Below, one piece after another: positions 7,430 through 56,300 of a stretch of DNA of 64,000 bases. Under the pieces are notes generated by a model. That model was not told the DNA's origin. It saw only the letters and a program-made list of their open reading frames with translations, and made no database searches. This DNA is from a virus. The DNA lies in the IMG/VR virus record IMGVR_UViG_3300032046_000001, positions 232,551 to 296,550 of that record; one strand, 5' to 3'. Within the stretch, counting starts at the first letter, position 1; each line of letters starts with the position of its first letter. A program made the translations under genes and the position numbers.

Positions 7430-9103
7430 CTAATCTTTGTTAATTATATCAAATACATCTATCACAGAATAATTACCGTATTTAGTGACTTTTGAATTTG
7501 TTATTTGATCTTTTATCTTTTTAATAATAGAAAAATTATCAACTTCTCTTATACCACTATTATCGAATGGATTATTATCATCATTATTTAATCTAAGAAT
7601 ATTATCAAAATCCATCAATTCTTCATATCTAGTGTCAGCTTCAATGATCAATGGAGGATCATATTTACGAACAAAATAACAAAATGCCGCAGCCATAACT
7701 AAATCATCATGGCATCCCTCGTCTGCTTCAACTTTCCCACTTGGTTTTGTTATTAAACCTATTAATTCTAGAGCTAAATTTTTTGATTTTATAGTTGTTG
7801 GAAATTGACTAACATATGAATATAATGCATCAATAACCAATGGTCTGTTCTGTCTATCTAAAAAAATACCTGGAATAATATTTGTTATTTCTCCTGCTTT
7901 ATTTCTTTTTTTCTCTTTATATAACATGGTGTGATATGTACTTCTATTAAGAGTCTCCATTACTTGATTTCCAACACCATTATTCTCTATCACTAACGTT
8001 CCTGGATATGTTGCACAAGCAAGTTCTACTATTTTACACAAATCGATAACTTCACATTTAGAGTGATATTCCCAAACTTGTGTCATTGAAATATAATCAA
8101 AAATTACTATAGTCGATTTATCTTCACCATTCAAAGTTGCAGTATCAACACCAATTATATAATGCCTATTGGGTACTGGTTTTTCATAAATTCTTATTTC
8201 ACCATTGAATATTTTATGAATTTCAATTGGATCAACAGGATTATCCTGTAGAACAATATTTGTTTTTTCATCAAAGAATGAACCCGATGTCGGTAAAAAT
8301 TTTAACTCTAATTCTTGCTGGATTTTTCTAAGATCATTATCAAAGAGTCTGCATTGCGTTTGATACCATTCTTCATTTAGTTCCTTAATCATCTTCCAAT
8401 GGATTATGAAAGGTTTGAAGATATCATTACCTGCAACGGCATTTTGATATCTGCTATAAAAAAACTTTCCAGTACCAACTGTTTTATTTGGTGTACTCAA
8501 AATTATTGTTCCATATGGTACATCATTTTCTTTGGCAGATTTTTGATTAGTTGCTAAAGCTGGCACCATTCCTGTCCAAGCATCATCTAATTTTTGAACA
8601 AATGCCGCTTCATCAATAACTAAAAAAGTAATACTTTCACCACGAAAACAATTCATAGGATTTTTGGGGTCAATTGGAGAGTTATATACTTTGCTACCAT
8701 TTTTTAATATAAAAGATCGTTCATTTCTCTTTTCAAATTTTGGTCGCATCCATGAAGGTAATTTATCAATAAATCCAGCTATAAATCTTGAAAATTTTGT
8801 TGCTGCTGGTCCATCTTTGGAAATTATTCCAACAACAGCATTATCATGAAAAACTACTAACCATGAAATATATGCTTGAATTATTGTACTAATACCAATT
8901 TGTCGAGATTTTACAACTATAACATAATGTTCTTCATTTATAGTTTTAATTAATTCTAATTGTTTATCATATGGTTTTATTTTTACATCACCACCAGGAA
9001 GTTCCAAAAGAATGTCGTTGGAAATATAATGATTAAAATTATTTTTACATTTCAAATATTCACTGACATTATCCTCCATTATTTTTATTTTTTCATTTTT
9101 CAT
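7430..9103 (-). CDS. terL: terminase large subunit
   Basis: Walker A-like VVKSRQIGISTI and Walker B-like FLVIDEAAF. C-terminal nuclease-type acidic motifs IGVDTA and EGCHDDLVMAAA. Length 557 aa. Confidence 0.85.
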   Translation of the reverse strand: MKNEKIKIMEDNVSEYLKCKNNFNHYISNDILLELPGGDVKIKPYDKQLELIKTINEEHYVIVVKSRQIGISTIIQAYISWLVVFHDNAVVGIISKDGPAATKFSRFIAGFIDKLPSWMRPKFEKRNERSFILKNGSKVYNSPIDPKNPMNCFRGESITFLVIDEAAFVQKLDDAWTGMVPALATNQKSAKENDVPYGTIILSTPNKTVGTGKFFYSRYQNAVAGNDIFKPFIIHWKMIKELNEEWYQTQCRLFDNDLRKIQQELELKFLPTSGSFFDEKTNIVLQDNPVDPIEIHKIFNGEIRIYEKPVPNRHYIIGVDTATLNGEDKSTIVIFDYISMTQVWEYHSKCEVIDLCKIVELACATYPGTLVIENNGVGNQVMETLNRSTYHTMLYKEKKRNKAGEITNIIPGIFLDRQNRPLVIDALYSYVSQFPTTIKSKNLALELIGLITKPSGKVEADEGCHDDLVMAAAFCYFVRKYDPPLIIEADTRYEELMDFDNILRLNNDDNNPFDNSGIREVDNFSIIKKIKDQITNSKVTKYGNYSVIDVFDIINKD

Positions 9104-9896
9104 TTTTTGTTTCCCTACAATTTAATTTTTTTAATTTTATATTTGATATTGTTGATATACAAACATTATGTTTTTTAGCCATCTGCCTATAATTTAATTC
9201 TTTTTTTTCTATCTCAATTTGAATATCTATAATTTTTTGATCCGTTAATTTAAAATTTGGATTGTCTTTACAGAAAAGACCTTTACCAAAATTAGGATTA
9301 TTTTCACCAATATATTTTCCTTTTTTGGACTCACTCATTTTATTTTTTGATTTTTCTGAAAAAAATTTTCCCTTTTTAGATTCACTCATCTTCTTTTTTG
9401 ATTCTTCTGAATGATGTTTACCAAAATTTGATGATTTTTCTCCTTTTTGTTTTTCACTTATTATTTTTTTTATTTCTTTACTATGTTGTTTTTTAAAAAA
9501 TGGATTATTTTCACCTTTTACTTTTTCACTTATTTTTTTTCTTGTTTGGTATGAAGTAATTTTACCACTGCTTCCTTCACCGCCATTGGTCATATTTAAA
9601 AGTGAACCAGTTCCTAAATCAATTCTTCCTATTTCTTGGATCAATTTTATTTCAAGTTCAAAAGATTCTTCTTCATTTAAATTTTCATATAATTTAAAAA
9701 CTACTGATTGTAATTTAGATTGTTTGATTTTATTTATTTTATTTTTAAAAAATAAATTTCTTCCATGTTCAATTGAATATCTTCTATCTTTACCTTTTCC
9801 AATATAAAATGGTTCGAATAAGAAACAAATATCTTCATAACAATACTTTCCAGATTTTCTTGGATCAAGATAAATATAAATATAAAAATTATTCAT
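9093..9896 (-). CDS. GIY-YIG homing endonuclease with four NUMOD3 repeats and a C-terminal HTH
   Basis: MNNFYIYIYLDPR...YIGKG (GIY-YIG). Repeats of SEESKKKMSESKKGK type (NUMOD3). C-terminal NYRQMAKKHNVCISTISNIK. Its 3' end overlaps the terL start by 11 nt. Confidence 0.8.
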   Translation of the reverse strand: MNNFYIYIYLDPRKSGKYCYEDICFLFEPFYIGKGKDRRYSIEHGRNLFFKNKINKIKQSKLQSVVFKLYENLNEEESFELEIKLIQEIGRIDLGTGSLLNMTNGGEGSSGKITSYQTRKKISEKVKGENNPFFKKQHSKEIKKIISEKQKGEKSSNFGKHHSEESKKKMSESKKGKFFSEKSKNKMSESKKGKYIGENNPNFGKGLFCKDNPNFKLTDQKIIDIQIEIEKKELNYRQMAKKHNVCISTISNIKLKKLNCRETKNEK

Positions 9897-11175: not shown

Positions 11176-12045
11176 CTATATTTTGATATGATTCCACGTT
11201 ATACCAGTTTTTATATTTGAGATTGTTTTTCGATTAACTCCAAATATATCAGCAATTTCTCTTTGTAATAATTTTCCTTCTTTTAATAATAATTTTATCT
11301 GAATAACATCTTGTGATATTAATATTGAATTATAATTTTTTTCACCTTTTTGATTTAATTCTCCATTTTTATATTTTTCTTTTATTGTTTCACTAATTTT
11401 TTTTCTTGCATCTTCATCTACACAAATAGAACAACTACATCCTTGTTGAAAATGATTCCAGTTAATAGAACCTTTATGTCCTTTTGGACATGTATATTCT
11501 AATATTGTTTCATTATTTTTATAATCTTTTTCTTCTGATAGTAAAATATATTTTCTTTTTTCAAATTCATTTTTTATATAAGAGAAATTTTTTCTATTTT
11601 TCTCACCTATTTTATTTTTAGTTTCTTTTAATAAATGTTTTCCAAAATTCGGATGATTTTCACCTCTATTTATTTCGCTTAATTTTTGTTTTGTTTCTTC
11701 TGTATGTTTATAACCACTTATTCCTTCACCACCATCTGTAATATTAACTAGAATTCCTGGATTTTTTATATTAATTTCATTTATCAATTCAACTTCTTTT
11801 TCAAATGATTTTTCTTCATTTAAATTCTCATATAATTTAAAAAAAATTAGTTCCAATCCAGATGATTTTATTTTATTAATTTTTCTTATAAAATAATCAC
11901 TTCTTCTGTTTTCACCAATTTCTTTCCATCTTTCATTACTTCCCTTACCGACATACATTGGTTTATATAAAAAACTAAAATTTTCATAACAATACTGTCC
12001 CGATGTTCTCGGATCTAAGTAAATATAAATATAAAATTCATTCAT
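11176..12045 (-). CDS. GIY-YIG homing endonuclease with one copy of the Cys/His repeat module and a C-terminal HTH
   Basis: MNEFYIYIYLDPR...YVGKG. NEFEKRKYILLSEEKDY...CPKGHKGSINWNHFQQGCSCSIC matches the repeat in 3..833. C-terminal REIADIFGVNRKTISNIK. Confidence 0.8.
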   Translation of the reverse strand: MNEFYIYIYLDPRTSGQYCYENFSFLYKPMYVGKGSNERWKEIGENRRSDYFIRKINKIKSSGLELIFFKLYENLNEEKSFEKEVELINEINIKNPGILVNITDGGEGISGYKHTEETKQKLSEINRGENHPNFGKHLLKETKNKIGEKNRKNFSYIKNEFEKRKYILLSEEKDYKNNETILEYTCPKGHKGSINWNHFQQGCSCSICVDEDARKKISETIKEKYKNGELNQKGEKNYNSILISQDVIQIKLLLKEGKLLQREIADIFGVNRKTISNIKTGITWNHIKI

Positions 12046-12226: not shown

Positions 12227-12256
12227 AAATATCAATAGAATTAATATAATATCATT

Positions 12257-13363: not shown

Positions 13364-13945
13364 TTAAACCTTGATATGATTCCAATATTTTTCAGTTCTT
13401 ATGTTCGATATCATATTTGATGAAATATTATATATTTTGGAGATCTCTATATTTTTAAAATTTAATTTAAATAACATTTTTATTTGAATAATTTTTAAAT
13501 TTGTTAATTTATGATTTCCCGATTTTTCACCAGATCTTTTAATACCAAACATTGGATTATTTTTTCCAATATAATTTCCTTTTGGATTATGATTATATGA
13601 ATGTATTGGATGAAATTTCGATTCTAAGTTATCAACAAAATTATTTTTTTTATTCTCATCGACATGATGAATATCATAATCTTTTTTTAATTTTTCTTTA
13701 AAAGTTTCATAAATCAATCTATGAATATAAATTGTTTTTCGTTTATTATTATTATTAAATAATCCTATTTTTAAATATCCATCTTTATTTTTATTTTGTT
13801 TTAATATTTTACAACAAATACCTCGACACTTTTTAAAACTTTTTATTCTACCGAAATTACTTACTAAATAATCAGGAAAATTTTTTATAACTTTCCAGAA
13901 CTCTCCTTCTAAATTATTAATATCTAAATTTTCATAAATTTTCAT
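13364..13945 (-). CDS. HNH homing endonuclease (NUMOD4-like N-terminus, C-terminal HTH)
   Basis: MKIYENLDINNLEGEFWKVI...YLVSNFGRIKS. DIHHVDENKKNN (HNH). C-terminal ISSNMISNIR. Confidence 0.75.
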   Translation of the reverse strand: MKIYENLDINNLEGEFWKVIKNFPDYLVSNFGRIKSFKKCRGICCKILKQNKNKDGYLKIGLFNNNNKRKTIYIHRLIYETFKEKLKKDYDIHHVDENKKNNFVDNLESKFHPIHSYNHNPKGNYIGKNNPMFGIKRSGEKSGNHKLTNLKIIQIKMLFKLNFKNIEISKIYNISSNMISNIRTEKYWNHIKV

Positions 13946-14261: not shown

Positions 14262-14293
14262 TCACCTTTCTAATATTTAATTTTAACGATTTT

Positions 14294-14420
14294 ATCTTTG
14301 ATTTATTCCGATCTTAATCGATTTAAATATACTAATTAAATTTCTAATTGATTGAATAGTCAAAATAATCATAAGTATGCCAATTATCATCAATAATATT
14401 CCAATTATATAATCAAACAT
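14294..14420 (-). CDS. small hydrophobic peptide (about 41 aa, MFDYIIGILLMIIGILMIILTIQSIRN...)
   Basis: Found by manual translation (below the ORF-track size cutoff). AAAGGG lies upstream. Single transmembrane-like segment. Confidence 0.3.
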
Positions 14421-14457
14421 TAATTGTGCCCTTTCGAAATAAAAAAATAAAAACATT

Positions 14458-14534
14458 CGAGACGGATCGGAACAATCGCTATTTAACCACCACCCATTAT
14501 GGGAATAGTGCGATTTTATTTCCGATCCGTCTCG
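14458..14534 (-). terminator. long structured hairpin (15-bp GC-rich stem, 47-nt structured loop) followed on the - strand by a U-rich tract
   Basis: cgagacggatcggaa...ttccgatccgtctcg, then rc(aaaaaaataaaaacatt), which is T-rich. Lies immediately 3' of the 14592..15440 gene. Confidence 0.6.
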
Positions 14535-14591
14535 TCATCATTCGAATTCACAATCTTCGAGATCCCCAAATCTCAATTCAGTGAAGGAACC

Positions 14592-15505: not shown

Positions 15506-15585
15506 TGGGAGGTCATATCGGATTCGAACCGATGCCTTCGAATTCGCGCGTAACCCGAAACTCTGGCCACTGAGTTTAATGACCT
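15506..15585 (-). tRNA. tRNA-like sequence with an anomalous anticodon arm (possible pseudo-tRNA; encoded CCA)
   Basis: Acceptor AGGTCAT/ATGACCT, T-arm ATCGG-TTCGAAT-CCGAT and a D-arm are present. The 24-nt central region CGGGTTACGCGCGAATTCGAAGGC does not fold into a canonical 5-bp/7-nt anticodon arm. Confidence 0.3.
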
Positions 15586-16009: not shown

Positions 16010-16112
16010 ATTTGAGATTTCAGAAATGATATCCAATCAATATTCCATAATTATAACCACCAATATCGACTTTTTCACTAAAAATTAAAATAACATTTGG
16101 ATCGGTATCAGA

Positions 16113-16305
16113 TTAAAATAATGGAACTATATGAAAATTAATAGGAATACCACATCCGGTACACCCTTCAATACATGAACTTTTTTCAGGCATCAGATCG
16201 AAAAATTCCAATGCCTTTCTCACTTTATGGCACTTCTCAGGGGGTTGGTACGTCAAATGTAATATATTCATTTAGTACAGTTCCTTCAACATGTAATACA
16301 TCCAT
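16113..16305 (-). pseudogene. Cys-rich small protein gene interrupted by a frameshift at a C5 (G5 on +) homopolymer. Paralog of 17156..17410.
   Basis: A perfect AGGAGG SD precedes the ATG. Translates to MDVLHVEGTVLNEYITFDVPTP then TGA. The +1 frame continues PEKCHKVRKALEFFDLMPEKSSCIEGCTGCGIPINFHIVPLF, which matches the paralog's C-terminus ...SSCTDGCTGCGFNIDI. Adding one C at 16240-16244 restores the frame. Confidence 0.4.
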
Positions 16306-16320
16306 TTTGATTCCTCCTAA

Positions 16321-16500
16321 TTAGAAATCGATTTGTAAACTTATTGTATCTTTTTCAATTCCGTCATCATCTGTTTCTTCGAACACAATTTCTTCAATTT
16401 CAGTTTGACTTGCAAAACCATCATCATAAACCAAAACTTCTACATCACCATGTTTTTTAATAATTTTTTCAATCCTATCAATTAATTCTGATGCTAACAT
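16321..16500 (-). CDS. small acidic protein (59 aa, MLASELIDRIEKIIKKHGDVEVLVYDDGFASQTEIEE...)
   Basis: An AAGGGG SD lies upstream. Manually translated; below the ORF-track cutoff. Confidence 0.4.
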   Translation of the reverse strand: MLASELIDRIEKIIKKHGDVEVLVYDDGFASQTEIEEIVFEETDDDGIEKDTISLQIDF

Positions 16501-16521
16501 AAATACCCCTTTTTAAAAAAT

Positions 16522-16598
16522 TGGTCGCACCGTGGAGATTTGAACTCCAATCCGAATAGCCGATCAAGCTATCCAATCCTTTGATTAAACTCTGCCCA
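16522..16598 (-). tRNA. tRNA-like sequence (anticodon arm GAU, Ile-like) with an intact 3' half and encoded CCA but a non-pairing 5' half
   Basis: T-arm TGGAG-TTCAAAT-CTCCA. Acceptor 3' strand CGGTGCG-A-CCA. Anticodon arm ATAGC-TTGATCG-GCTAT. No complementary 5' acceptor strand was found in the preceding 26 nt. Confidence 0.3.
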
Positions 16599-16658
16599 TA
16601 TACAACTATGGCGGACTTTATTTAATCAGATCCCTATTAGACGACGGTGCTAAATAAG

Positions 16659-17410: not shown

Positions 17411-17431
17411 TTAAAGTGTGATAAAAAATAG

Positions 17432-17502
17432 TGGCACTATGGAGGATCGAACTCCAGTTGGATGATCGAAGGTCATCTGTCCTGCCATTAGACGATAGTG
17501 CC
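17432..17502 (-). tRNA. tRNA-Glu (UUC), paralog of the tRNA-Asp gene, with unusual C33
   Basis: GGCACTA-TC-GTCTAATGGCAGGAC-A-GATGA-CCTTCGA-TCATC-CAAC-TGGAG-TTCGATC-CTCCA-TAGTGCC-A. Differs from tRNA-Asp mainly in the anticodon loop. Confidence 0.7.
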
Positions 17503-17532
17503 GAATAAAAAATTTGATTGTATTACTACTTT

Positions 17533-17552
17533 CACATATTAATATATATAAA
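17533..17552 (-). promoter_or_regulatory. conserved promoter-like 20-mer TCACATATTAATATATATAA (+ strand reading), 31 nt upstream of the tRNA-Glu 5' end
   Basis: Exact 20-mer also at 33076..33095 and 56276..56295. Variants at 18992, 34576 and 49096. Always sits 5' of - strand genes. Confidence 0.5.
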
Positions 17553-17651
17553 TGTTCATCGATATCCCAAAATCAAAAAATCAACCTTCCAACACCAAAT
17601 GCCCCATAATGTTTTCCAACAGGAACACATGGCATTGGATTTAAGGGATTT

Positions 17652-18960: not shown

Positions 18961-18991
18961 AATTGAAGTTTAAAAAATTAATTATCCGTAT

Positions 18992-19010
18992 CATCTATTA
19001 ATATATTTAG
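18992..19010 (-). promoter_or_regulatory. variant of the promoter-like motif (CATCTATTAATATATTTAG)
   Basis: Lies 31 nt upstream of the 18960 start codon. Confidence 0.35.
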
Positions 19011-24773: not shown

Positions 24774-25430
24774 TTAAATATTTTGATGATATTTATCATT
24801 TAAAATTTTTCGTATACTACTTATTGCGTGTTGTTCATATTTTTCTCTAAATAATTCAGTACGAAAAATATGTTTTTTTGGATCTAAAAGAGTTAGTAAA
24901 AAATTTATTCTGGCATTTTTACTGAATGATAATCCATATTCCTTTTCAATATTATCATCATATTGATTGAAAGTTTCTTCATCAGAACCTAATATTGAAA
25001 AATCAATGTCATACATATAATTATATTCAATTATTGGTTTGGTTGATGTTCCATATTTTGTTTCTAAAATTAAATCAGCAACTAAATCTGGATTTAATAT
25101 CAAGTCTAACTCATATATTGATCTTACTGCTTCTATAGAACTTAATAATTCTGATTCTCCATTATAAGTAGTCATGATAAAATCATGCCAGAATATGGCG
25201 TACTCCATTTCTTCACGATTTGGAAGGGTTTGCTTGATACTATCTAATAGATCAATACTTCTCATAATATGATCAATATTATGATAATGTCTTCTATGAG
25301 AAGTATATGCCGATATTAATTGATTTAAATATGCGGAGTGACTAAATCCACCACCATATAACGCAACACTTTGACATAATCTTGAAAATCTTTCTCTAAA
25401 TGATGATATATCCATTATGACCACCACCAA
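24774..25430 (-). CDS. possible HD-domain phosphohydrolase-like protein
   Basis: Segments RRHYHNIDHIMRSIDLL and FWHD. Weak call. Translationally coupled to the CoaD-CoaE gene. Confidence 0.35.
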   Translation of the reverse strand: MVVVIMDISSFRERFSRLCQSVALYGGGFSHSAYLNQLISAYTSHRRHYHNIDHIMRSIDLLDSIKQTLPNREEMEYAIFWHDFIMTTYNGESELLSSIEAVRSIYELDLILNPDLVADLILETKYGTSTKPIIEYNYMYDIDFSILGSDEETFNQYDDNIEKEYGLSFSKNARINFLLTLLDPKKHIFRTELFREKYEQHAISSIRKILNDKYHQNI

Positions 25431-26581
25431 TATCGCTGAATTGTCTCAGCTAATTTATGAAAACATTCTCGATCAAATTCAGTATCTGATACATTTGAAT
25501 TATTGAATGTGATAATATCTCCGTGACCATCTTTTTTAATTTGATCTTGTATTCGTTTTCTAAGTTCTCCTGATGTTAATTGACTATTGATTCTTTCTTC
25601 GATTTGTTTATCAGTTAAAGATCTTGATCTTAATCTTTCATATTGTTCACTTGGGCTTGTCTCAACCAAGATCACATTGTTATTAGATAGATAACCCAAA
25701 TTAAAATCTAATATTTTATTACCGAATAAATAGGCACAATTCAGAAGAATAATACAATCTTTATTTTTCTGTAATTTCTCTCGATAGAGCATGAATAGAG
25801 CTTCATCTACTAATTTATATAGTTTAATCAATCTTTCAGGATTAGGGAAAACTTTCTCAGCCAGGATATGAGAATCTATCAAACACATACAATTATTATT
25901 AGAAAATATAATATCATCACCAAATTCGTCAACAATGTTTCGACGAATTTGTGTATAATATGGTTGAAATCTCTGTGTATAAATCTCATGAACAAGATTA
26001 TCGAAGTCTATATTAATCATCTTTAATGAACCAGCTTCAATTATCTTTTTTGTGACGAATGACTTACCACAACCGATACCACCTACAACTCCAATAATTA
26101 TTTGTCCAGAAATTTTTTTCTCAAGAGCTTGTTTGACATATAAAGGTACAAACTCATGAATGAATCCTTTGTGTTGTTCTAATACTTTAACAACAGAAGA
26201 ACTCACATTTTCATACTTCTGTTCCGAAAATAAAAGTAAAGTCTCGATATTGGGAGCTTGTGATTTACCAACTTTATATAGATTTGTTTCATACTGATAA
26301 TCTTCTTGATTTCGGACACTTTTCACAATGATATCTATACCGTTTAAGATCGCATAATCAACAAGCAACCCATCAAATGCTGATACTTCAACATTAGGTA
26401 TATGAGCAACTGATTTACGGATAAGTTCCAATCTCTCATATAAATTAAAAACATACTTCTTTGTTTCATTAATTCCAACGGCAACATGTACTTGTTCAAA
26501 TAGTTTAGCTGCTCGTTCGATTGTATTTATATGACCAAAATGGATCGGGTCTCCACTCAGAGCAAACATAGCTTTTGACAT
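25415..26581 (-). CDS. coaDE: bifunctional phosphopantetheine adenylyltransferase / dephospho-CoA kinase (CoaD-CoaE fusion)
   Basis: N-terminal FALSGDPIHFGHINTIERAAKLF...NVEV...RNQEDYQYETNL (CoaD-like T/HxGH and R..DFEYE). C-terminal IIGVVGGIGCGKSFV...IDFDNL...ILVETSPSEQYERLRSR (CoaE-like P-loop). Confidence 0.7.
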   Translation of the reverse strand: MSKAMFALSGDPIHFGHINTIERAAKLFEQVHVAVGINETKKYVFNLYERLELIRKSVAHIPNVEVSAFDGLLVDYAILNGIDIIVKSVRNQEDYQYETNLYKVGKSQAPNIETLLLFSEQKYENVSSSVVKVLEQHKGFIHEFVPLYVKQALEKKISGQIIIGVVGGIGCGKSFVTKKIIEAGSLKMINIDFDNLVHEIYTQRFQPYYTQIRRNIVDEFGDDIIFSNNNCMCLIDSHILAEKVFPNPERLIKLYKLVDEALFMLYREKLQKNKDCIILLNCAYLFGNKILDFNLGYLSNNNVILVETSPSEQYERLRSRSLTDKQIEERINSQLTSGELRKRIQDQIKKDGHGDIITFNNSNVSDTEFDRECFHKLAETIQRYWWWS

Positions 26582-26591
26582 AATCGATCTC

Positions 26592-26804
26592 CTATGGTGT
26601 ATCTACTTCTATTACTGTCTCATCAATACTTAATTCAACTATATAAAATATAATATTTCTATAATTAGAATTTGGATCTTTTCTTTCATCAATAATCCAT
26701 TCGTTTATCCTATTTTCATCTTCGGAAGAATAAACACAATCTCCTTGTGGTGAATTAATTCTACATTCAAATTTGATATATGTTTTTTCCATTGTTTCTC
26801 TCAT
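26592..26804 (-). CDS. hypothetical small protein (70 aa)
   Basis: ORF. Confidence 0.4.
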   Translation of the reverse strand: MRETMEKTYIKFECRINSPQGDCVYSSEDENRINEWIIDERKDPNSNYRNIIFYIVELSIDETVIEVDTP

Positions 26805-26814
26805 TGTTTTTCTC

Positions 26815-27228
26815 CTATTTCTTTTTTTTCACAAAATACCGTGGCCAATTTTCATAACTTCCATTAATAACTGGTGTATTAGGAAACCATGTATTTTTAT
26901 GGTTGAATTGATCTGTGAGCAAAACTGTTAATTCACCACGTTCCATTTGTTCATACCGAATGGGACAATCTTTTTTGAAGGCGTCCCAAGCGTCAATGAC
27001 ATTCTGTTTTTCTTTTTGTTGTGTATGTTCACCATCTTTATATGGAGCTTTGTATGTATATAAACAATAATGTTCGGTATTATCCGATACTTTGATATTT
27101 TCTTCTAATATTGGAGACCATGTATATTCTCCTACTCTTACTACAAAATAATAATTTATATATACAAGTCCGATATGCTCCCAAGTTCTATCAATACGTG
27201 ATGGATCTACTCCTTGTTTTGTTAACAT
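26815..27228 (-). CDS. hypothetical protein (137 aa)
   Basis: ORF. Confidence 0.45.
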   Translation of the reverse strand: MLTKQGVDPSRIDRTWEHIGLVYINYYFVVRVGEYTWSPILEENIKVSDNTEHYCLYTYKAPYKDGEHTQQKEKQNVIDAWDAFKKDCPIRYEQMERGELTVLLTDQFNHKNTWFPNTPVINGSYENWPRYFVKKKK

Positions 27229-27488
27229 TTTGTTTGCCTCTTCACAATATTCGTATATATAGGTTTTGTCTTTGTCTCCATAACCACAAAATCATGTTTA
27301 CAGTATTTTCCTTCTTCTCTTTGTCTATTCATCCATCCGATTATTTCACTTAAACCAGTACCAGTATATACTCTTCTACCTTTTGGACTATCAAGTCGAA
27401 TTTCAAATATCGTTCGTCCCTTATCATTTTCTATAAATTCTTCACTATAATTCATATACAATCTTTTGTCATAATAGGTTCTTTCCAA
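27222..27488 (-). CDS. hypothetical small protein (88 aa)
   Basis: ORF. Confidence 0.4.
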   Translation of the reverse strand: MERTYYDKRLYMNYSEEFIENDKGRTIFEIRLDSPKGRRVYTGTGLSEIIGWMNRQREEGKYCKHDFVVMETKTKPIYTNIVKRQTKC

Positions 27489-27724
27489 TCATCATCTTGG
27501 ATTGGTTTGGTATCATACCAATCCAATATAGCTCCACAGTATGGACACCAATAAATATATGTTTCACCACCAGATGATGAATGTGGGTGTTCATGATGTT
27601 CAATTAATTCCATCTGATAATTACAAAATTTACAAATTTCATCAAAATTCATTTTTTCAAACCTGTTCCTATATAGTATTTTTATGATATTCGTAGAACT
27701 TATTATTATAATCACGACATACAT
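27452..27724 (-). CDS. small zinc-ribbon-like protein (90 aa)
   Basis: CKFCNYQ...CPYCGAIL. Confidence 0.4.
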   Translation of the reverse strand: MYVVIIIISSTNIIKILYRNRFEKMNFDEICKFCNYQMELIEHHEHPHSSSGGETYIYWCPYCGAILDWYDTKPIQDDDWKEPIMTKDCI

Positions 27725-28661
27725 CTAAACAATTATTACGACATATAGAATCTTTATAAGTATCATGGTTTTTATACCAATTATATCTTTCTTCCATTAT
27801 CTTATTTCTGATAATTGAGTGTTTCGATCCACAATGTAATATATTTCCGATTGGTTTTCCCTTTTCTCGCATATAAATAATACATGGATAATGATATTCT
27901 CCGGCGATTGCTATATCATCTAATACCAATGGACATCGATTATAATCAGATAAAGAAAGACCTCGTACTGGAATATTATTTATGATATTGTTATACCGAT
28001 ATTTTAGTATTGGATGTTTATATAATATAGACGATTCAATATAAAATGTTGGATATTGTGTCCCATTTTGCGCTGCTGGTATAATGCGTATATCATCTAC
28101 ATGTAAGTCATGTGCTAATCTAATTATATCTCCCAATTCGGACATATTTTGTTCAGTCAATACCACACCAACTGTTATATAAGATATCAATGATAAAAAT
28201 TCAATTGTATCTATTACCTTTTTCCATTGACCTGTTTTTCCAGTCATTGTGTCACCTGTTGATGAACAACACGAATCCAGTGAAACAGAAAAATCATTCA
28301 CTCCTGCGGCCATTAAATAAAAATATAATTCTTGATCATTAGACCCATTTGTTGAAATGGCAATATGTCCTATGTTATTTTGTCTCGCATATTTAATCAT
28401 TTTTAACAGATCTTTATTTAAAGTTGGTTCTCCTCCTGAAAATCTGATATTCCTGATTTTATTATTGAATATATCAAGAATACATTTAATAGAATCTATC
28501 GTAAGATCACCACATAATTTATCTTCGAGTCCACGACAATATGGACATTTAAAATTACATCTATCGGTAATTATTATTTCACATCGATTGATTATACCAT
28601 CGGGAATTTTTTTTACTCTTTCTTCACACAATGTATAAAAACCTATTTCTTCAAGATTCAT
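27669..28661 (-). CDS. radical SAM enzyme (MoaA/SPASM-like) with a C-terminal Cys-rich domain
   Basis: DRCNFKCPYC (CxxxCxxC). GGEPTL. STNGS. VSLDS. Multiple C-terminal Cys (CPLV, CIIY, CGSK, CRNNCLDVC). Confidence 0.7.
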   Translation of the reverse strand: MNLEEIGFYTLCEERVKKIPDGIINRCEIIITDRCNFKCPYCRGLEDKLCGDLTIDSIKCILDIFNNKIRNIRFSGGEPTLNKDLLKMIKYARQNNIGHIAISTNGSNDQELYFYLMAAGVNDFSVSLDSCCSSTGDTMTGKTGQWKKVIDTIEFLSLISYITVGVVLTEQNMSELGDIIRLAHDLHVDDIRIIPAAQNGTQYPTFYIESSILYKHPILKYRYNNIINNIPVRGLSLSDYNRCPLVLDDIAIAGEYHYPCIIYMREKGKPIGNILHCGSKHSIIRNKIMEERYNWYKNHDTYKDSICRNNCLDVCRDYNNKFYEYHKNTI

Positions 28662-28714
28662 AATTTATACTCCTTTCAATAATAAAATGTAATATATCTC
28701 CATATTTTCAAATT

Positions 28715-29041
28715 TTATTTTCTATAATTCCAATAACTTCTTTCATCTATTAATTCAGTACATTTTTCAAACCATTCATCCACTGTATAAATTTCTGGTA
28801 AATTCAAACTAATTTTACCATAAGCACCATTATGAATTATATCAGAGGCATAAAACGTATAACCTCCAATTTTAAAGGAATGTTTAAGATATATATTTTT
28901 TTCAAAATCATAACAAGCTCTACACTCCCGTTCTATATCACATAATAATGCCTCAGCAGATTCATACTCAGCGGGGAAAATAATTTCCCCGCCTTCATAC
29001 TCACTACCATATTGATAAATAATAACGAGTCTCATCAACAA
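28715..29041 (-). CDS. hypothetical protein (108 aa)
   Basis: ORF. Confidence 0.45.
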   Translation of the reverse strand: MLMRLVIIYQYGSEYEGGEIIFPAEYESAEALLCDIERECRACYDFEKNIYLKHSFKIGGYTFYASDIIHNGAYGKISLNLPEIYTVDEWFEKCTELIDERSYWNYRK

Positions 29042-31041
29042 TCACCAGATTCGATTCGTTTCTTCATTATTTCTTTCAATTCTTGAAGCTCTCTGCTAAC
29101 CCAAACCGATTGTCTCTTTGGAAATTTAAGATCTTTCCATTGAGGTTTCAATAATGCCATTTCAGACTGATGATATATCTTAATTTCATTAGCCATCAAT
29201 GGCACTGTTAATCTCACATCATTCTGTAAAGTAGGTTGTAGCATGTTATGACGAATATCCCTTAGATCAGTATATCGTCTTCTTCCACTATTCGACCGCT
29301 CAACCATCTCTTGAGAATCAGATTTTGGTTGATCTTTTAAAGAAGTTGAATACTCTCCTTCAGAATCACGATGTAATGATTTTTTACCAGGATCGGTCAT
29401 TTTCTCTATACTACTACTAAGTTTGATGGTTGGATTACCATCAATATCAACTAATTTATAAACAACTCCTAACGGTACAGGAACAAGTTTAGTTCCAATA
29501 CCATCAGCATCATTAGCTGCTTCTTTTTCCATCATCAACATTCTAGTATCTTCATCAATATCATTAGATGTAACGATCTTTACTGCTTTAAATCCGTTAT
29601 CATCCAGAATCTTTCTTACAGTTTGAGAATCCCAAATTAAATCACCGGAATCGATACGAACTTTAAATCTCCGTAAACCGTGTTTATTTGCCGTTTTAAG
29701 GGCATCTCTTAGTCCTGTGAAGGTTCCATAGGTATCTAAAATAAATGCGGATTTCTCCCCAAATAACGAAGCCTGGGCATCAAAACTATAGAGTTGTCTC
29801 CTGTATGCCTCAACGGAACTATGGCTTGCTGTTCCTGATAATGGAATACCATATACTTGTCCCGCTAAAACATTAGAACTTGATGTTGCCCCAGTGATAT
29901 AGAATGCTCTTGATAATTCCAATGCCGCTTCTCTACCCATTCCTCTTCGCATATGAAAGTCTGCCCAAGGAACAGATGGATTAGCCAATGTCATTCTGGC
30001 ACCATTGGTAGCACCAGCAATAACATATCCCATACATCCTAATATATAGGTTTCAATAAAATCACCGATTGCCAAAGGTGCTGTTATTTGAATTAAAGGA
30101 ATATGGGGTTGAATAACAGTTCCTTCTGGAACCATTTCAACATATCCTTTAAACGATAACTCTCTTAAGTATTCATATAATATCTCTGGAAAGTTCCATT
30201 GAGATTTGATAAAATCGATATCTCTTCCAGTCATTTCAAGCTGTTGGAGATATTCAATTACTTTTTCATTTCCCATCATTATACCGAAACTACCATTCTT
30301 TGGATTGTTTCGATAAAACATGTTAAACGTAGCGATGTCGTCTTGTTTACCAGAATGTAAATACATCGCCATTTTCAATAGTTGATAAAAATCTGTTGAC
30401 ATGGCTGAGTTTAGAGGAGGTTTATCTGTAATATAAAATCTATTACCTTGAGGATCTTGAATTTCAACATAACCATTCTTCATCACTTTCAATATTTTAT
30501 TACCGCTATTGACAAGTGATTCTAAAAACTTATCATTCATTAAAACAATTCCCTCCAGTTTCGTTTGAATAAGGTTGGTTGATCTACCATACCAGTATAT
30601 TCGAATTTTCTTTTTCCCAAATTTAAAAGCCTCATATGGCTTTAATATATCAATTCTTGATCGAAATCGAGAACTTGTTTTATCAAGAACGATTTTTTCT
30701 CTAACTACATTATCGCTCTTGTAATAAATTTTTGTGTTTCGATCTAATCCTAATTTTACCAGATCTTTCGAAACAGCAATAATTTTGTGACGATTCTTGT
30801 TATGAATCCTGTCATTCCACGCACAAATATTTGGTGTAGAATCACATTGTTTTTTTGTGGCATTATATGCAGTTGCATCAACAATCTTACTATTTATAAT
30901 CGGAATTTCCGATTGTTTAATACTCCAAATATAAAAAGATCTAAAATGATTTTTTGATTGAGTATCATAAATTTTTGAAGTTGTAATTACTACCGGACAC
31001 AATATAATTAAAATAAATAACATCATAAATGTCTTTTTCAA
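29035..31041 (-). CDS. nicotinate/nicotinamide phosphoribosyltransferase-family enzyme fused to an N-terminal signal peptide and a 3D-like domain
   Basis: C-terminal 450 aa: LNSAMSTDFYQLLKMAMYL, GATSSSN, SGTASHS, VRIDSGD and DGIGTKLV, the type-II PRTase motifs. N-terminus: MKKTFMMLFILIILCPVVITTS, then ATAYNATKKQCDSTP...KIIAVSKDLVKLG...RIDIL (3D-domain-like). Confidence 0.65.
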   Translation of the reverse strand: MKKTFMMLFILIILCPVVITTSKIYDTQSKNHFRSFYIWSIKQSEIPIINSKIVDATAYNATKKQCDSTPNICAWNDRIHNKNRHKIIAVSKDLVKLGLDRNTKIYYKSDNVVREKIVLDKTSSRFRSRIDILKPYEAFKFGKKKIRIYWYGRSTNLIQTKLEGIVLMNDKFLESLVNSGNKILKVMKNGYVEIQDPQGNRFYITDKPPLNSAMSTDFYQLLKMAMYLHSGKQDDIATFNMFYRNNPKNGSFGIMMGNEKVIEYLQQLEMTGRDIDFIKSQWNFPEILYEYLRELSFKGYVEMVPEGTVIQPHIPLIQITAPLAIGDFIETYILGCMGYVIAGATNGARMTLANPSVPWADFHMRRGMGREAALELSRAFYITGATSSSNVLAGQVYGIPLSGTASHSSVEAYRRQLYSFDAQASLFGEKSAFILDTYGTFTGLRDALKTANKHGLRRFKVRIDSGDLIWDSQTVRKILDDNGFKAVKIVTSNDIDEDTRMLMMEKEAANDADGIGTKLVPVPLGVVYKLVDIDGNPTIKLSSSIEKMTDPGKKSLHRDSEGEYSTSLKDQPKSDSQEMVERSNSGRRRYTDLRDIRHNMLQPTLQNDVRLTVPLMANEIKIYHQSEMALLKPQWKDLKFPKRQSVWVSRELQELKEIMKKRIESGDC

Positions 31042-31052
31042 ATTATTATCTC

Positions 31053-31415
31053 CTATTTAATTATTCTATTTTTATTATGATCTCCTGTATGTTTAGACGT
31101 AGGTTTTTTTTCTAAATTTTCAAAAGTATTTTCTAATTTATTTTTATTTTTATGGTGAATAACTTCATCACATTTTAATTTTTCTATAAAAGTTTCATAT
31201 AGTAAACGATGAACTCTCCTAGTTTTTATTATTTTATTTTGACATAAACGAGCACGAAGATATCCAGTACTACTCTTGGTTTGTTTTAATATTTTATTTT
31301 TCTTGATAGATTTAATTCTACTAAAATTACTTATTAGATATTCTGGAAACTCTTCGATTATTTTCCAAGTTTCATTTTTTAAATCTCGTAAGTTTAAATT
31401 TTTATATATTTTCAC
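31053..31415 (-). CDS. HNH homing endonuclease, short form lacking the C-terminal DNA-binding region
   Basis: MKIYKNLNLRDLKNETWKII...YLISNFSRIKS. VIHHKNKNKLEN. Ends soon after the HNH motif. Confidence 0.55.
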   Translation of the reverse strand: MKIYKNLNLRDLKNETWKIIEEFPEYLISNFSRIKSIKKNKILKQTKSSTGYLRARLCQNKIIKTRRVHRLLYETFIEKLKCDEVIHHKNKNKLENTFENLEKKPTSKHTGDHNKNRIIK

Positions 31416-31440
31416 TAAAATTCCTTTTTAAAAAATTTAT

Positions 31441-31490
31441 AAAAAAAATCCTCTGGATTAGGAGGGAGTAAAATATCCAGAGGATTTTTT
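31441..31490. terminator. bidirectional rho-independent terminator (12-bp stem, A8 upstream and T6 downstream)
   Basis: aaaaaaaa-tcctctggat-[16-nt loop]-atccagaggatt-tttttt. Lies between the HNH gene start and the SPFH gene 3' end. Confidence 0.6.
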
Positions 31491-31511
31491 CAATTAATAC
31501 TGTTAAACAAA

Positions 31512-32450
31512 CTATTCTTTGGTTGGGAATGTCTGTTTGTAGAGCATTGAACTCCCTACTATGGGACCGAAATTCTTACTGGTTAGTGCATCATAAGGTG
31601 CCAACATAAAAGTATTATTTGGACCCTTTGCCATTTCTTCGTACATCTTGTACTGTTCTAATGCTAATACAGCCGGTGTTAAGGAGGCACCGACAATGGC
31701 ATTGGCTTTGGCTGTAGCTCTCGCTCTTTCTACTTGGGCTTCGCCTTCCTTAATGGCAATCTCTGTCTGTCGTTCAGCTTCTCTTGTCCGCGCTTGGGCT
31801 TCTGCGGCCTTCTGTAAATCATCAAGTTCGGCATTTTTAATAGCCGTTTTCTTGTTCTTGATCTTTTCCTCATAATCCAGGTCAGATACCTTAAGGCCGG
31901 TGGTGATTATCGGGAATCCCTTACCCTTTATTTCAGCAGCAATCTGTTTGTTTAATTCATTCTCAATGGGTCCGCGTAGATCCTGGAGATTGTCAGTATT
32001 GTATGGTGCTACAACACTTCGTGTAGTACTCCGAATGGTACTTTGTATTACGGCCTTGTAGAAGGTGGCGAATTCAACTTTGTATATCTTGGAGTCACTT
32101 GTGGGAGTTGGTTTCACTATACTCAGAATTTTCTTAACAGACTCATCATCCCGTAGGTCAAACTGGCCAAAGTACTTCACATCCATGATTACAGGTATCT
32201 GATCTTTACAGAGGATGTGCATCGTGTCTTCATCAAACTTATTGATGGAACCGTCGATATAAATGGTAAGATCACGGCCATATGCGTGGTAGTTGCCATC
32301 ACGAATGATATTGAAGTTTCCACCAGAATCCTTGATAACAATTACTGTTGCTGGAGGCACGGTCTTACCCATACAACCGAAGATCGAAGGAAGGACACAT
32401 AAAATCAAAGCCATAAATAGTACATATTTCAGAGATTGTTTCGGATTCAT
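31512..32450 (-). CDS. SPFH/band-7 (stomatin/HflC-like) domain lipoprotein, GC-richer
   Basis: Signal peptide with lipobox LPSIFGC. C-terminal Ala/Glu-rich coiled coil AELDDLQKAAEAQARTREAERQTEIAIKEGEAQVERARA. Confidence 0.6.
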   Translation of the reverse strand: MNPKQSLKYVLFMALILCVLPSIFGCMGKTVPPATVIVIKDSGGNFNIIRDGNYHAYGRDLTIYIDGSINKFDEDTMHILCKDQIPVIMDVKYFGQFDLRDDESVKKILSIVKPTPTSDSKIYKVEFATFYKAVIQSTIRSTTRSVVAPYNTDNLQDLRGPIENELNKQIAAEIKGKGFPIITTGLKVSDLDYEEKIKNKKTAIKNAELDDLQKAAEAQARTREAERQTEIAIKEGEAQVERARATAKANAIVGASLTPAVLALEQYKMYEEMAKGPNNTFMLAPYDALTSKNFGPIVGSSMLYKQTFPTKE

Positions 32451-32513
32451 ATTAATGCTCCTTATATTAGAATAACATTGTTTAAACTACCATTAATATT
32501 AAGATTCTCCCTC

Positions 32514-32948
32514 CTAAAGAGTATCTAGATACTTCTGGAACTCATCACGAGCTTTTTGATTCTTTTCTCGAATCTTGTCGTTCAGTTCCATTTCACGTTT
32601 TTCTTTCATATCCTTAATGAGTTGTTCAATTGTATTCGGATCAGATGTTTTGTGATCCTCCAATTGTTTTTGATTATATTGCTCGGATTGTGTACCAACA
32701 CCGCTGTCATATGATTTCACTGTTACATCATGAAGGAATATTCTGGAAGCGATAAATATGATCGCACCAGCGGTCAGAAGTACTTTAATAACAGAATAAA
32801 TAACAGCCAGGACATTATACCATGATTCATTAACTTCAAAAATGGTGAACAATTTCTTAATTCCCCATTTCGAAGTCATAAAGATGATAATCATAAATAT
32901 GACCGATGCCACAAACCAAATCAGCGGTTGAATATGAAAATTTAACAT
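32514..32948 (-). CDS. two-TM membrane protein, possible NfeD-like partner of the SPFH protein
   Basis: Two hydrophobic segments, then a charged C-terminal tail. Immediately upstream of the SPFH gene. Confidence 0.45.
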   Translation of the reverse strand: MLNFHIQPLIWFVASVIFMIIIFMTSKWGIKKLFTIFEVNESWYNVLAVIYSVIKVLLTAGAIIFIASRIFLHDVTVKSYDSGVGTQSEQYNQKQLEDHKTSDPNTIEQLIKDMKEKREMELNDKIREKNQKARDEFQKYLDTL

Positions 32949-33075
32949 AATTTGTTCTCCTCTCGAAAAAGATTTCCTGAATCACTAATGTTGTCATCAT
33001 AACTCTTCAGGTGGATAGTATCATTTATACGTGCTATTCATTTAACTACTATGAATTGTAGAGATATAAATTACT

Positions 33076-33095
33076 TCACATATTAATATATATAA
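33076..33095 (-). promoter_or_regulatory. conserved promoter-like 20-mer TCACATATTAATATATATAA
   Basis: Exact copy. Lies 5' of the 32514..32948 gene on the - strand. Confidence 0.5.
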
Positions 33096-33119
33096 TAACT
33101 TCGGTTTATTTCTAAATTA

Positions 33120-33890
33120 TTACTCTATATTCTCATCCCATCGTACCAATGCTATTGGAGCTAATGCCCTCTTATGCTCAGTAGCTTCCATAATTTTTGA
33201 AATTCTCACTTCGTCTGGTGTTGTAGGTGTCTTACCACTGAGATATATTTTTGTGAGAACATCATCAAGAACATCATAATTTCCGATATCATCCTCATCA
33301 TAATGATTTGGTGTTAGATCAGCAGTTGGTCGCTTTGTCAGAATTTTTTCGGGAATTTGAATATAGTCGTGTTGAGTACAAAGTATATTATTATAATAAT
33401 GTGCTAGACCATATACATCTCTTTTTAGTAATTCACCTAATAATTCGATATCTGATGCTCCATCGCCGAATTTTGTAAAATATCCAGTCATAATTTCTGA
33501 TAAATTACAAGTTCCAATAACTTTACTATTATGTTCATTGGCGTATGCATACAATAGACACATTCTTATCCTAGACATTATATTTTCTTTAGTTCCATTT
33601 TGCCATAAGATTCCGGTATTATAAAAGCTATCGTATATATTTCTAATGTTTATAATAGAGTATGATACACCGAATTGGTGTACTAGATCAATACCATCCT
33701 TAAGATGTTCATTTTCCCAATATGGCATAAGCATAGCATGAATCTTGTCTTTTCCAACAGCCTGAACAGTCATTGCGAGACAAAGAGATGAGTCAATTCC
33801 ACCAGATACTCCGAGGATAAAACCACTAGATGTTTCTAATTCTTCTCTGACAAAATCAACAATAATTTGATTCACTTTTTCATAATTCAT
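33120..33890 (-). CDS. nadE: NH3-dependent NAD+ synthetase
   Basis: LGVSGGIDSSL (PP-loop SGGxDS). GYFTKFGDGASDI. RPTADL. TEHKRA. Confidence 0.85.
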   Translation of the reverse strand: MNYEKVNQIIVDFVREELETSSGFILGVSGGIDSSLCLAMTVQAVGKDKIHAMLMPYWENEHLKDGIDLVHQFGVSYSIINIRNIYDSFYNTGILWQNGTKENIMSRIRMCLLYAYANEHNSKVIGTCNLSEIMTGYFTKFGDGASDIELLGELLKRDVYGLAHYYNNILCTQHDYIQIPEKILTKRPTADLTPNHYDEDDIGNYDVLDDVLTKIYLSGKTPTTPDEVRISKIMEATEHKRALAPIALVRWDENIE

Positions 33891-34545
33891 TTTCCATTCT
33901 CCTTTTTATTTTTGATACTGTTGAATGAACTACTCCGTGTTTATTTGCAATCTGTCTTTGAGTTAAATCATCTTTTTCAATATCAATTTTTATATCAATA
34001 TATTTTTGATTTGACAACCTGTTAAGATTATTTTCACTCATTATCTTTTTTGTTTTTTCTGAATGTTTTTTTCCTTTATTGCTTTCACTTATTTTTATTT
34101 TAGTTTCTTCTGAAAGTAATCTACCTTTTGGATTATGAAGTTTGTTATGTTCTTTTTTAGGTATCATTATTAAATTTTCTAAAATATTATTTTCTTTATT
34201 TCTATCTTTATCATGATGAACACATTCATCAGATTTTAATTTATAATCATTAAAAGTTTCATAAACTAATATATGAATTTTTTTAGTTTTCTTGTTTCCA
34301 TTTTTAGATAAATTAATTACAAAATAATCATCATTATCTTTATGTTGTTTTATTATTTTTCCACTTATTTTATCATATTTAAAACTTTTAACTCGACCCA
34401 GATTACTAACTTGATAATCACAATCATAATCTAAAATATCTTTCCAAATTTCATTATCTAAATCATTAATATCTAAATTTTCGTATATTTTCATTTTAAT
34501 GCTCCAAGTATCTGAAAGAAAATTTTTATAATATAAAAATGACAT
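33880..34545 (-). CDS. HNH homing endonuclease with NUMOD3-like repeats and a C-terminal HTH
   Basis: MKIYENLDINDLDNEIWKDI...YQVSNLGRVKS. CVHHDKDRNKENN. ETKIKISESNKGKKHSEKTKK. VHSTVSKIKRR. Confidence 0.7.
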   Translation of the reverse strand: MSFLYYKNFLSDTWSIKMKIYENLDINDLDNEIWKDILDYDCDYQVSNLGRVKSFKYDKISGKIIKQHKDNDDYFVINLSKNGNKKTKKIHILVYETFNDYKLKSDECVHHDKDRNKENNILENLIMIPKKEHNKLHNPKGRLLSEETKIKISESNKGKKHSEKTKKIMSENNLNRLSNQKYIDIKIDIEKDDLTQRQIANKHGVVHSTVSKIKRRMENEL

Positions 34546-34575
34546 CTTTTTAAAACGTTATTTTACTTATTCTTT

Positions 34576-34594
34576 CATAGATTAATATATATAG
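34576..34594 (-). promoter_or_regulatory. variant of the promoter-like motif (CATAGATTAATATATATAG), 30 nt upstream of the 34545 start
   Basis: Similar to the 20-mer. Confidence 0.4.
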
Positions 34595-34598
34595 TTCT

Positions 34599-35192: not shown

Positions 35193-35454
35193 GATAACCT
35201 CTATCTGATAGTTCCGTCATTGATTCAAAAAAATTATTATGATGAAATAAAATTTTTCTTCCATCACATTCAAATATTATCCAACCATTTCCTAAATTTT
35301 TTAATATTTTTGCCTCTGTTGGAATATCATACATGACAGAAAAACCACCTTCATGAACAACTTTTGATGGATCTTGTTCATATGTTTTACAGGAAATAGT
35401 TCCTAATATAATAAAAATAATTAATAAAAATTTTTTAATATTTTTGATAGTCAT
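35182..35454 (-). CDS. small lipoprotein (90 aa)
   Basis: MTIKNIKKFLLIIFIILGTISC, with lipobox GTISC. Confidence 0.45.
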   Translation of the reverse strand: MTIKNIKKFLLIIFIILGTISCKTYEQDPSKVVHEGGFSVMYDIPTEAKILKNLGNGWIIFECDGRKILFHHNNFFESMTELSDRGYHVK

Positions 35455-43737: not shown

Positions 43738-43753
43738 AACTTTTACACCTCAA

Positions 43754-46537: not shown

Positions 46538-46542
46538 TAATT

Positions 46543-48007: not shown

Positions 48008-48056
48008 TTTCCACTTATGTACTACACCCGGTATATCATATTATAATATTGGGTTA

Positions 48057-56295: not shown

Positions 56296-56300
56296 CATAA

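Follow-up and report, generated by a model that had tools for sequence, protein, structure and literature searches.

The locus considered here raises the question of which signal is carried by an AT-rich motif of 20 nucleotides (nt) that recurs between the genes of a viral DNA stretch of 64,000 nt, corresponding to positions 232,551 to 296,550 of the IMG/VR record IMGVR_UViG_3300032046_000001 and referred to hereafter as the window. The window has a GC content of about 28% and almost all of its genes lie on the - strand, on which the motif reads TTATATATATTAATATGTGA (TCACATATTAATATATATAA on the + strand). An initial annotation had proposed that the motif represents a phage promoter, perhaps for the phage RNA polymerase (RNAP), or an operator for a dimeric regulator. 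The present analysis argues strongly for a promoter of some kind, because of the strict directionality of the motif, its fixed short distance to start codons or to a tRNA 5' end, its placement behind terminators, and its exact conservation despite a divergence of 15-40% between the proteins of the phages compared. The more specific reading, which combines a lineage-specific promoter core, its recognition by the phage RNAP and a transcription start at the 3' edge of the motif, is favoured with moderate confidence; from sequence comparisons we infer the promoter activity, the start site, the polymerase and its factor alike.

Six sites, named after their approximate position in kb (W17, W19, W33, W34, W49 and W56), occur in the window, all on the - strand. 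Three are exact copies, namely W17 (17532-17551), preceded by a hairpin, W33 (33076-33095), located in a 171-nt gap past the NAD synthase gene, and W56 (56265-56284). The initial annotation had the right number of exact copies and the right position for W33, but its positions for W17 (17533) and W56 (56276) were off by 1 nt and 11 nt, respectively. The close variants that it reported near 18992, 34576 and 49096 are real and begin at 18991, 34575 and 49095: W19 (18991-19010, CTAAATATATTAATAGATGA) differs by four mismatches, W34 (34575-34594, CTATATATATTAATCTATGA), which starts 4 nt past the stop codon of the upstream gene, by three mismatches, and W49 (49095-49115, CTATATATAATAAATATGTGA) by a 1-nt indel. 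A possible degenerate seventh copy, GATATTATATTAATTCTATTGA (12232-12253, -), is a weak call in a 284-nt gap 5' of the operon leading to the gene for the large subunit of the terminase (TerL). A near-match at 54337-54357, inside a radical-SAM gene, was not counted as it codes for a conserved IKYINI peptide. The density of sites is approximately one per 10 kb. When up to three mismatches are allowed, four matches occur in the window for 0.16 expected, and none of 100 dinucleotide-preserving shuffles reached four; in addition, the exact 20-mer has four matches only in the bacterial and archaeal genomes of GTDB (596 Gb), in unrelated contexts, none of which is promoter-like. With so low an expectation for the window and so rare a 20-mer in the GTDB genomes, the recurrence of the motif is not explained by chance.

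All six sites are intergenic, the gaps between genes representing no more than about 7.5% of the window, and all are oriented like the adjoining genes. Similarly, a position weight matrix (PWM) built from the sites matches, within the window, the coding strand only. The positional bias toward gene starts, anticipated in the initial annotation and checked here within the 64-kb window, is readily apparent. Measured from the 3' end of the motif, the downstream feature usually begins after 29 to 48 nt: 29 nt for W17, upstream of the 5' end (17502) of the tRNA-Glu(UUC) gene (17431-17502, -), as that annotation had noticed; 29 nt for W34; 43 nt for W49, upstream of an open reading frame (ORF) that encodes a coiled-coil protein of 88 amino acids (aa); and 48 nt for W56, upstream of the ATG at 56216. 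Depending on the start codon considered, the distance is 30 or 45 nt for W19, the ATG at 45 nt being the one with a Shine-Dalgarno sequence. The single long spacing is that of W33, correctly described as lying farther from its gene, with 127 nt to the start codon. The motif often stands directly behind a terminator hairpin, which is perfect in two related contigs (L013 and L163) and weaker at W17.

Relatives of the phage were collected as contigs fetched through their similarity to the RNAP β' subunit encoded in the window, and the 20-mer was also looked for in public collections. L013, L011 and L163, at about 60-85% protein identity, are base-for-base identical to the window over the 20-mer of the W56 orthologue, and the flanks have diverged. 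The site orthologous to W49, located 5' of the same 88-aa gene, possesses a version of the motif in every relative with a β' at least 63% identical to that of the window, i.e., CTATATAAATTAATATGTGAAAGG in L163, CTATATATAATTAATAGTGAAAG in L013, CTATATATATTAATAGGTAA in L006, CTATATATATTAATAGACGAA in L010 and CTATATATATTAATATACGAA in L161 (β' 63-84% identical). The metagenome scan retrieved the exact 20-mer from 28 contigs, of which about 12 represent distinct low-GC, phage-like sites, many of them on contigs that carry proteins homologous to those of the window. All of these approximately 12 sites are intergenic, co-oriented with the downstream gene and located 33-67 nt 5' of a Shine-Dalgarno sequence and an ATG. 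The remaining hits correspond to isolated chance matches in unrelated DNA, often of higher GC content or from giant viruses. The genes behind the motif vary between relatives and include TerL operons, preceded by the exact 20-mer in L033, L014 and L031.

When the 14-mer core of the motif was used to scan IMG/VR, the matches listed were mostly chance occurrences in AT-rich contigs, the informative ones among them being L157, L042 and L050. L157, an IMG/VR contig with a β' only 28.7% identical, contains two co-oriented copies of cTATATATATTAAT(A/T) located 40-55 nt before Shine-Dalgarno sequences, and only the second copy counts as independent evidence because L157 was found through the other. 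The presence of the cTATATATATTAAT core beside so distant a β' (29% identity) hints that the motif may travel with the polymerase family. The same cTATATATATTAAT(A/T) sequence was observed in the same arrangement in L050 (positions 1040 and 4254) and L042 (position 749), for which protein similarity to the window is undetectable; one of the L050 copies precedes a tRNA-like sequence (ARAGORN predicts no tRNA in L050) and the others stand some 35-40 nt before a Shine-Dalgarno sequence and an ATG. A broader range of phages may thus employ the motif core. A megablast search of 20 kb against GenBank phages gave no nucleotide match, and no β' relative was found in the genome-contig collection.

The coding-strand consensus of the motif can be written (T/C)TATATATATTAATA-n-(G/A)-T-G-A, i.e., yTATATATATTAATA followed by nrTGA. 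The 14-nt core TATATATATTAATA is invariant over at least 20 aligned sites and represents an extended AT-rich element of the type that characterizes AR9/phiKZ-type promoters. The conserved G19/A20 dinucleotide is located 6 nt after TATATATATTAAT; A20 is invariant in all 23 sites aligned with the PWM and the conservation stops abruptly beyond it. No -35 element or conserved upstream hexamer was found in the aligned sites. An upstream element, ATTTTGGGATA, located 11 nt before the motif, was considered as a -35-like sequence and rejected, since it corresponds either to a T-tract or to part of a terminator hairpin, namely its loop and 3' arm; fewer than half of the sites possess it, and many of these are mutually orthologous. 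A -10 hexamer beginning at G19/A20 and the downstream TACAAT were similarly rejected, neither being kept across sites.

The shape of the motif is also where the operator proposal has to be weighed, according to which the palindromic core ATATTAATAT would be bound by a dimeric phage repressor or activator controlling adjacent promoters. The core was described as a perfect palindrome, and this holds over 10 base pairs (bp) in the three exact copies, which, like the other copies, are intergenic as expected from an operator; but most variants and orthologues retain only 8 bp of the dyad (TATTAATA), whereas their non-symmetric flanks persist. The asymmetry of the flanks that the initial annotation had noticed is borne out by the aligned sites, in which the conserved left arm reads yTATATATA and the right arm nrTGA, so that the symmetric part accounts for 8-10 of the 20 conserved bp, which falls short of the dyad of a dimeric operator. 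Moreover, every phage-like copy is oriented like its downstream gene, an orientation that a symmetric operator does not need, alternating AT sequences are near-palindromic by composition, and none of the sites is associated with a helix-turn-helix regulator. Operator and promoter could overlap, in which case both roles could coexist; as an explanation of its own, the operator is improbable. Because the conservation is asymmetric and directional, a promoter is favoured over a symmetric operator.

Signals acting at the RNA level, such as an endonuclease processing site or an element of the 5' untranslated region (UTR), or the mere duplication of a functionless terminator-promoter or mobile cassette, could also generate recurrent intergenic sequences. 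The motif would lie within a 5' UTR if upstream transcription reads through. Its RNA, however, forms no more than a weak AU hairpin (-5.5 to -6.1 kcal/mol, compared to about -2.5 ± 1.7 kcal/mol in shuffles), and the Rfam scan recognized no family at any motif site, the tRNAs being its only hits in the window. With respect to duplication, a homing-endonuclease gene is located behind one copy, and W17 (17505-17625, -) and the W49 orthologues (window 49050-49170, -; L163 7800-7915; L013 7935-8070) have approximately 70 nt in common beyond the 20-mer, including, on the upstream side, ATTTTGGGATATCGA, an arm of a terminator hairpin, and, on the downstream side, AAAG...TACAAT...TTTTT. This common stretch suggests an intragenomic duplication of an entire terminator-promoter cassette. 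Most copies, however, resemble each other in the 20-mer only, and duplication alone is insufficient to account for exact conservation at 60-85% protein identity. Such RNA-level or cassette explanations are accordingly held to be highly improbable.

A promoter calls for a polymerase, and the window encodes two large subunits of its own. The β' subunit (43754-46537, -; 927 aa) is an unsplit, compact, bacterial-type protein with an intact NADFDGD motif, and the β subunit (39510-42671, -; 1053 aa) is similarly unsplit and of the bacterial type; Pfam RNAP domains are recognized in both. The best PDB matches of β' are bacterial β' subunits (E about 1e-93), and β shows 30-37% identity to bacterial rpoB and about 24% to the phiKZ/AR9-type subunits. 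Since β' is carried by a contig of 312,420 bp and its metagenomic relatives, of about 900 aa, number in the thousands, the window is part of an uncultivated huge phage belonging to a large undescribed lineage. The large ORFs of the window comprise no recognizable single-subunit RNAP, and a second, split RNAP set was not seen within its 64 kb. The β' and β subunits represent candidate cognate subunits for the motif, a link that we infer; the suggestion of the initial annotation that the phage RNAP may read the motif is plausible in this respect, but no specificity factor for the enzyme was recognized in the window.

In the window the RNAP genes are arranged in the order 141-aa ORF, β', β (39510-46968, -), and the relatives displaying this block are L006, L008, L010, L013, L160, L161 and L163. 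The 141-aa ORF upstream of β' (46543-46968) is conserved, translationally coupled and marked by the motif DxDHPNSDPxTDxFCL...YNLxNCYF; it has seven close homologues only, and its AlphaFold model is unusable (predicted local distance difference test, pLDDT, of 46). A 191-aa ORF past β is conserved no further than L006. Other members of the syntenic block comprise two ThiF-like genes, a radical-SAM gene and large ORFs of no assigned function (804 and 426 aa). Between β' and β, an ORF for an N6/N4 DNA methylase (42935-43753, -; 207 aa) matches its Pfam model only from model position 43 onwards and is preceded in line by 195 nt that read like the missing N-terminus (ttgaggtg...), so that the gene appears to be frameshifted or interrupted. 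As a whole, the RNAP lineage appears to be undescribed and may be of greater interest than the motif itself.

The region upstream of the RNAP operon (ThiF / 141-aa ORF / β') lacks the 20-mer in the window and in close relatives. It contains instead, behind a terminator hairpin, a non-coding block conserved among relatives, in which TAAATAACAAA comes after a T-run (TTTATTTTTTTATTTTTTTATGGGATTAAAA...TAAATAACAAA; window 47862-48056, -; L163 8910-9119; L013 9060-9305; L161 1619-1846; L006 7180-7335), which may represent a second promoter class devoted to the RNAP genes. The 11-mer TAAATAACAAA was rejected as a recurrent element of the window, with 13 occurrences for 13.2 expected. The lack of the motif in front of the RNAP operon is what one would expect of an enzyme that has to be synthesized before the motif sites can be used, and is compatible with a cascade.

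Several observations weigh against a promoter read by the phage RNAP. L008 and L160, whose β' subunits are 56-57% identical to that of the window (GC 33-37%), contain no motif in about 18-23 kb each, and the motif is therefore specific to a sub-lineage. In L157, the motif stands 5' of an operon containing a β'-like gene, so that RNAP genes devoid of the motif are not a general rule. No sigma factor and no gp55-, gp68- or gp226-like factor was recognized with Pfam and PHROGs among some 65 proteins of the window that were examined, and gp33 gave no match either. The RNAP of the window is unsplit and bacterial-type, and the nearest known promoters are read by the split phiKZ/AR9 type. AT-rich intergenic DNA favours AT-rich motifs a priori, so that the positional statistics are somewhat inflated. 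Finally, the genes located behind the motif are functionally mixed, comprising tRNAs, membrane and SPFH proteins, NAD metabolism, a homing endonuclease and proteins of no assigned function, together with TerL in relatives, and no temporal class can therefore be assigned to them. W17 heads a cluster of tRNAs and small ORFs; W19 is followed by a 139-aa ORF and then by 152-aa (Macro-like) and 134-aa ORFs; W33 by a gene for a 144-aa membrane protein (32514-32948, -) and an SPFH/Band-7 gene; W34 by an HNH/NUMOD4 homing-endonuclease gene and the NAD synthase gene; and W56 by an 80-aa ORF, 331-aa and 88-aa ORFs, and a terminator (54545-54582).

Some of the same observations nourish the main rival explanation, a promoter read by the host RNAP core, or by a hybrid core, with a sigma-like factor of phage or host origin, after the model of gp55 in phage T4. 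T4 late promoters consist of a TATAAATA box located at about -13 to -6 and read by gp55 together with gp33 and the sliding clamp on the host RNAP. The core TATTAATA matches this box at seven of eight positions, the phage encodes a T4-type TerL, and TerL operons, which are typically late genes, stand behind the motif in relatives. In addition, a bacterial-type β'/β enzyme is expected to need a sigma-like factor, and relatives with the same RNAP family but no motif suggest that the specificity may be conferred by another factor, distinct from the RNAP and evolving faster. Against this, homologues of gp55, gp33 and sigma were not found in the window, which covers 64 of 312 kb; the conservation extends over 14-20 contiguous bp, far beyond a sigma -10 box; no -35 element is conserved; and bacterial genomes are essentially devoid of the 20-mer. 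A promoter of the sigma-70 type, with TTGACA-like (-35) and TATAAT-like (-10) hexamers separated by 16-18 nt, was rejected, as a scan of 44001-64000 showed no enrichment of sigma-70 consensus sites (142 for 128.8 ± 9.5 expected) and gave no - strand call at W49 or W56 among the stronger matches listed; the matches at these two sites are antisense only and inconsistent between copies, and the TTCACA-N17-TATAAT sequence antisense to W49 is not repeated at the other copies. Taken together, a sigma-like factor acting on a host or hybrid core is unlikely.

The preferred reading thus remains a promoter directed by the phage. The status of promoter is favoured by the conservation of orthologous sites, the orientation, the Shine-Dalgarno spacing and the adjacency to terminators, and the operator proposal of the initial annotation is not favoured owing to asymmetry, to the decay of the dyad and to strict direction. 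As a working model, the contiguous block of about 14 bp would be recognized as a '-10-region' element by a phage-directed transcription machinery, the most likely reader being the bacterial-type β'/β RNAP of the phage assisted by a putative specificity factor, because the block is long and rigid, nearly absent from bacterial genomes, and the phage RNAP is apparently functional. Initiation would occur at or just after G19/A20, at positions 19-21 by analogy with AR9 or T4 (about position 21 in the case of T4), so that the 5' UTRs would measure about 30-70 nt and the tRNA-Glu leader 29 nt. Often located behind the terminator hairpin of the preceding unit, the motif would allow transcription to be re-initiated for the next one. 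With about one site per 10 kb, the motif should therefore be one promoter class among several, and a cascade is possible, in which the RNAP is first produced from another promoter class and subsequently uses the motif sites. A more daring proposal, that an unsplit, minimal, bacterial-type β'/β enzyme dispenses with canonical sigma factors and initiates at an AT-rich promoter of 14-20 bp, the core of which is nearly identical to that of AR9, is rather doubtful; if true, it would point to an ancient promoter recognition shared among phage multisubunit RNAPs, or to convergence.

Besides the motif and the polymerase, the window encodes a T4-type TerL, SbcC/SbcD-like proteins, NAD and CoA metabolic genes, HNH/NUMOD4 homing endonucleases and eight or nine tRNAs. 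The metabolic genes are gathered in an auxiliary cluster (24774-36575, -) comprising a 668-aa NAPRTase-domain protein, an NAD synthase, an isochorismatase/nicotinamidase-like protein, a PPAT/dephospho-CoA kinase fusion and a second radical-SAM protein, which point to a putative NAD+ salvage route and a CoA-synthesis route of the phage. The HNH/NUMOD4-type genes occur as scattered paralogous copies at 69-833 on the + strand, and at 9093-9896, 11176-12045, 13364-13945, 31053-31415 and 33880-34545 on the - strand; in relatives, homing-endonuclease genes are inserted between β' and β or beside TerL, and the β' of L010 contains an intein. Next to the tRNA-His/Lys/Asp/Leu/Trp array, an extra tRNA-like gene (15510-15584, -) reaches 38.2 bits with Rfam and is unreported by ARAGORN. 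The same tRNA region contains two long 'intergenic' stretches (14262-14591 and 16011-16657, -) with a GC content of about 0.34-0.39 and no Rfam match at the gathering threshold; the first one harbours paired GC-rich segments gacgagacggatcgg...ccgatccgtctcg, and both could hold small ORFs or an unrecognized structured RNA. Finally, a 920-nt intergenic region of L160 (20575-21495 of a 277-kb contig, β' 56% identical) displays about 30 copies of (A)GTGAACCA at a spacing of approximately 25-35 nt, as estimated by eye, which looks like an array of iterons, a replication origin or another protein-binding array; no repeat array of this type is present in the window.

The interest of the motif is that a promoter consensus that can be tested becomes available for the first time in an unstudied, abundant lineage of huge phages, with genomes of up to more than 300 kb and a compact bacterial-type RNAP. 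Used as a defined template, the consensus makes the polymerase and its putative specificity factor amenable to in vitro assays, and it allows transcription units to be annotated in metagenomic genomes. A phage-specific promoter consensus discovered by over-representation is of a well-known kind, the lineage being uncharacterized, and the surprise is modest because such discoveries are well precedented. A literature search for the motif string retrieved no report of a phage promoter of this sequence. The 'moraphage' lineage was dropped as a term of comparison, since it lacks an RNAP.

Among the known promoter systems, those of the T7 type, read by single-subunit phage RNAPs, are conserved over approximately 20-23 bp through +1. 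The motif resembles them as a long, near-invariant, promoter-sized repeat whose conservation reaches the presumed start, but a multisubunit polymerase is encoded here and no single-subunit RNAP gene was found in the window, so that it falls outside the T7 type. With the T4 late promoters, it has in common a lone AT-rich -10-type element devoid of a -35 and a predicted start about 6 nt past the box, in a phage with a T4-type terminase; it differs from them by a conserved stretch of 14-20 bp compared to an 8-bp box, by the possession of its own β'/β subunits, and by the lack of recognizable gp55/gp33 homologues in the window.

The closest resemblance is found with the promoters of the multisubunit RNAPs of phiKZ-related phages. 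The early promoters of the phiKZ family consist of a highly conserved AT-rich element of some 10 nt centred near -10 (PMC7598289), and the promoters of phiKZ-related virion RNAPs are generally extended, highly conserved and AT-rich, with a start mapped 6 nt downstream in phiKZ and phiR1-37 (PMC5312081; PMC7598289). Like them, the motif is a single long AT-rich element, phage-specific, devoid of a -35 and over-represented 5' of operons, whereas the sequence and the polymerase lineage differ, and the start sites mapped in phiKZ are predicted here. The early promoters of AR9, established by differential RNA sequencing (dRNA-seq), read AAATATATATTAT-(6N)-G+1 (PMC5312081). AR9 and the present phage both display an extended, near-invariant AT-rich block, with the 10-mer ATATATATTA common to both elements, followed 6 nt past the block by a conserved purine, here G19/A20, at which the start is placed by analogy. 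In both, the copies number in the tens per genome, with one every 7-10 kb or so; they are intergenic, oriented like the genes, associated with UTRs of tens of nucleotides (predicted in the present phage), and were detected bioinformatically by over-representation. The flanks differ, AAA...T in AR9 compared to yT...AATA here, and so do the enzymes, the split, highly diverged and virion-packaged β/β' of AR9, whose genome contains uracil, being replaced here by an unsplit bacterial-type RNAP; virion packaging and early timing are likewise features of AR9, of which no sign was seen here. In a strict sense, the motif thus stands outside the family of AR9/phiKZ virion-RNAP promoters, the split, virion-packaged polymerase not being encoded in the window. 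In this respect, a comparison with AR9 and phiKZ can show whether the AT-rich '-10-only' recognition is general to the multisubunit RNAPs of phages.

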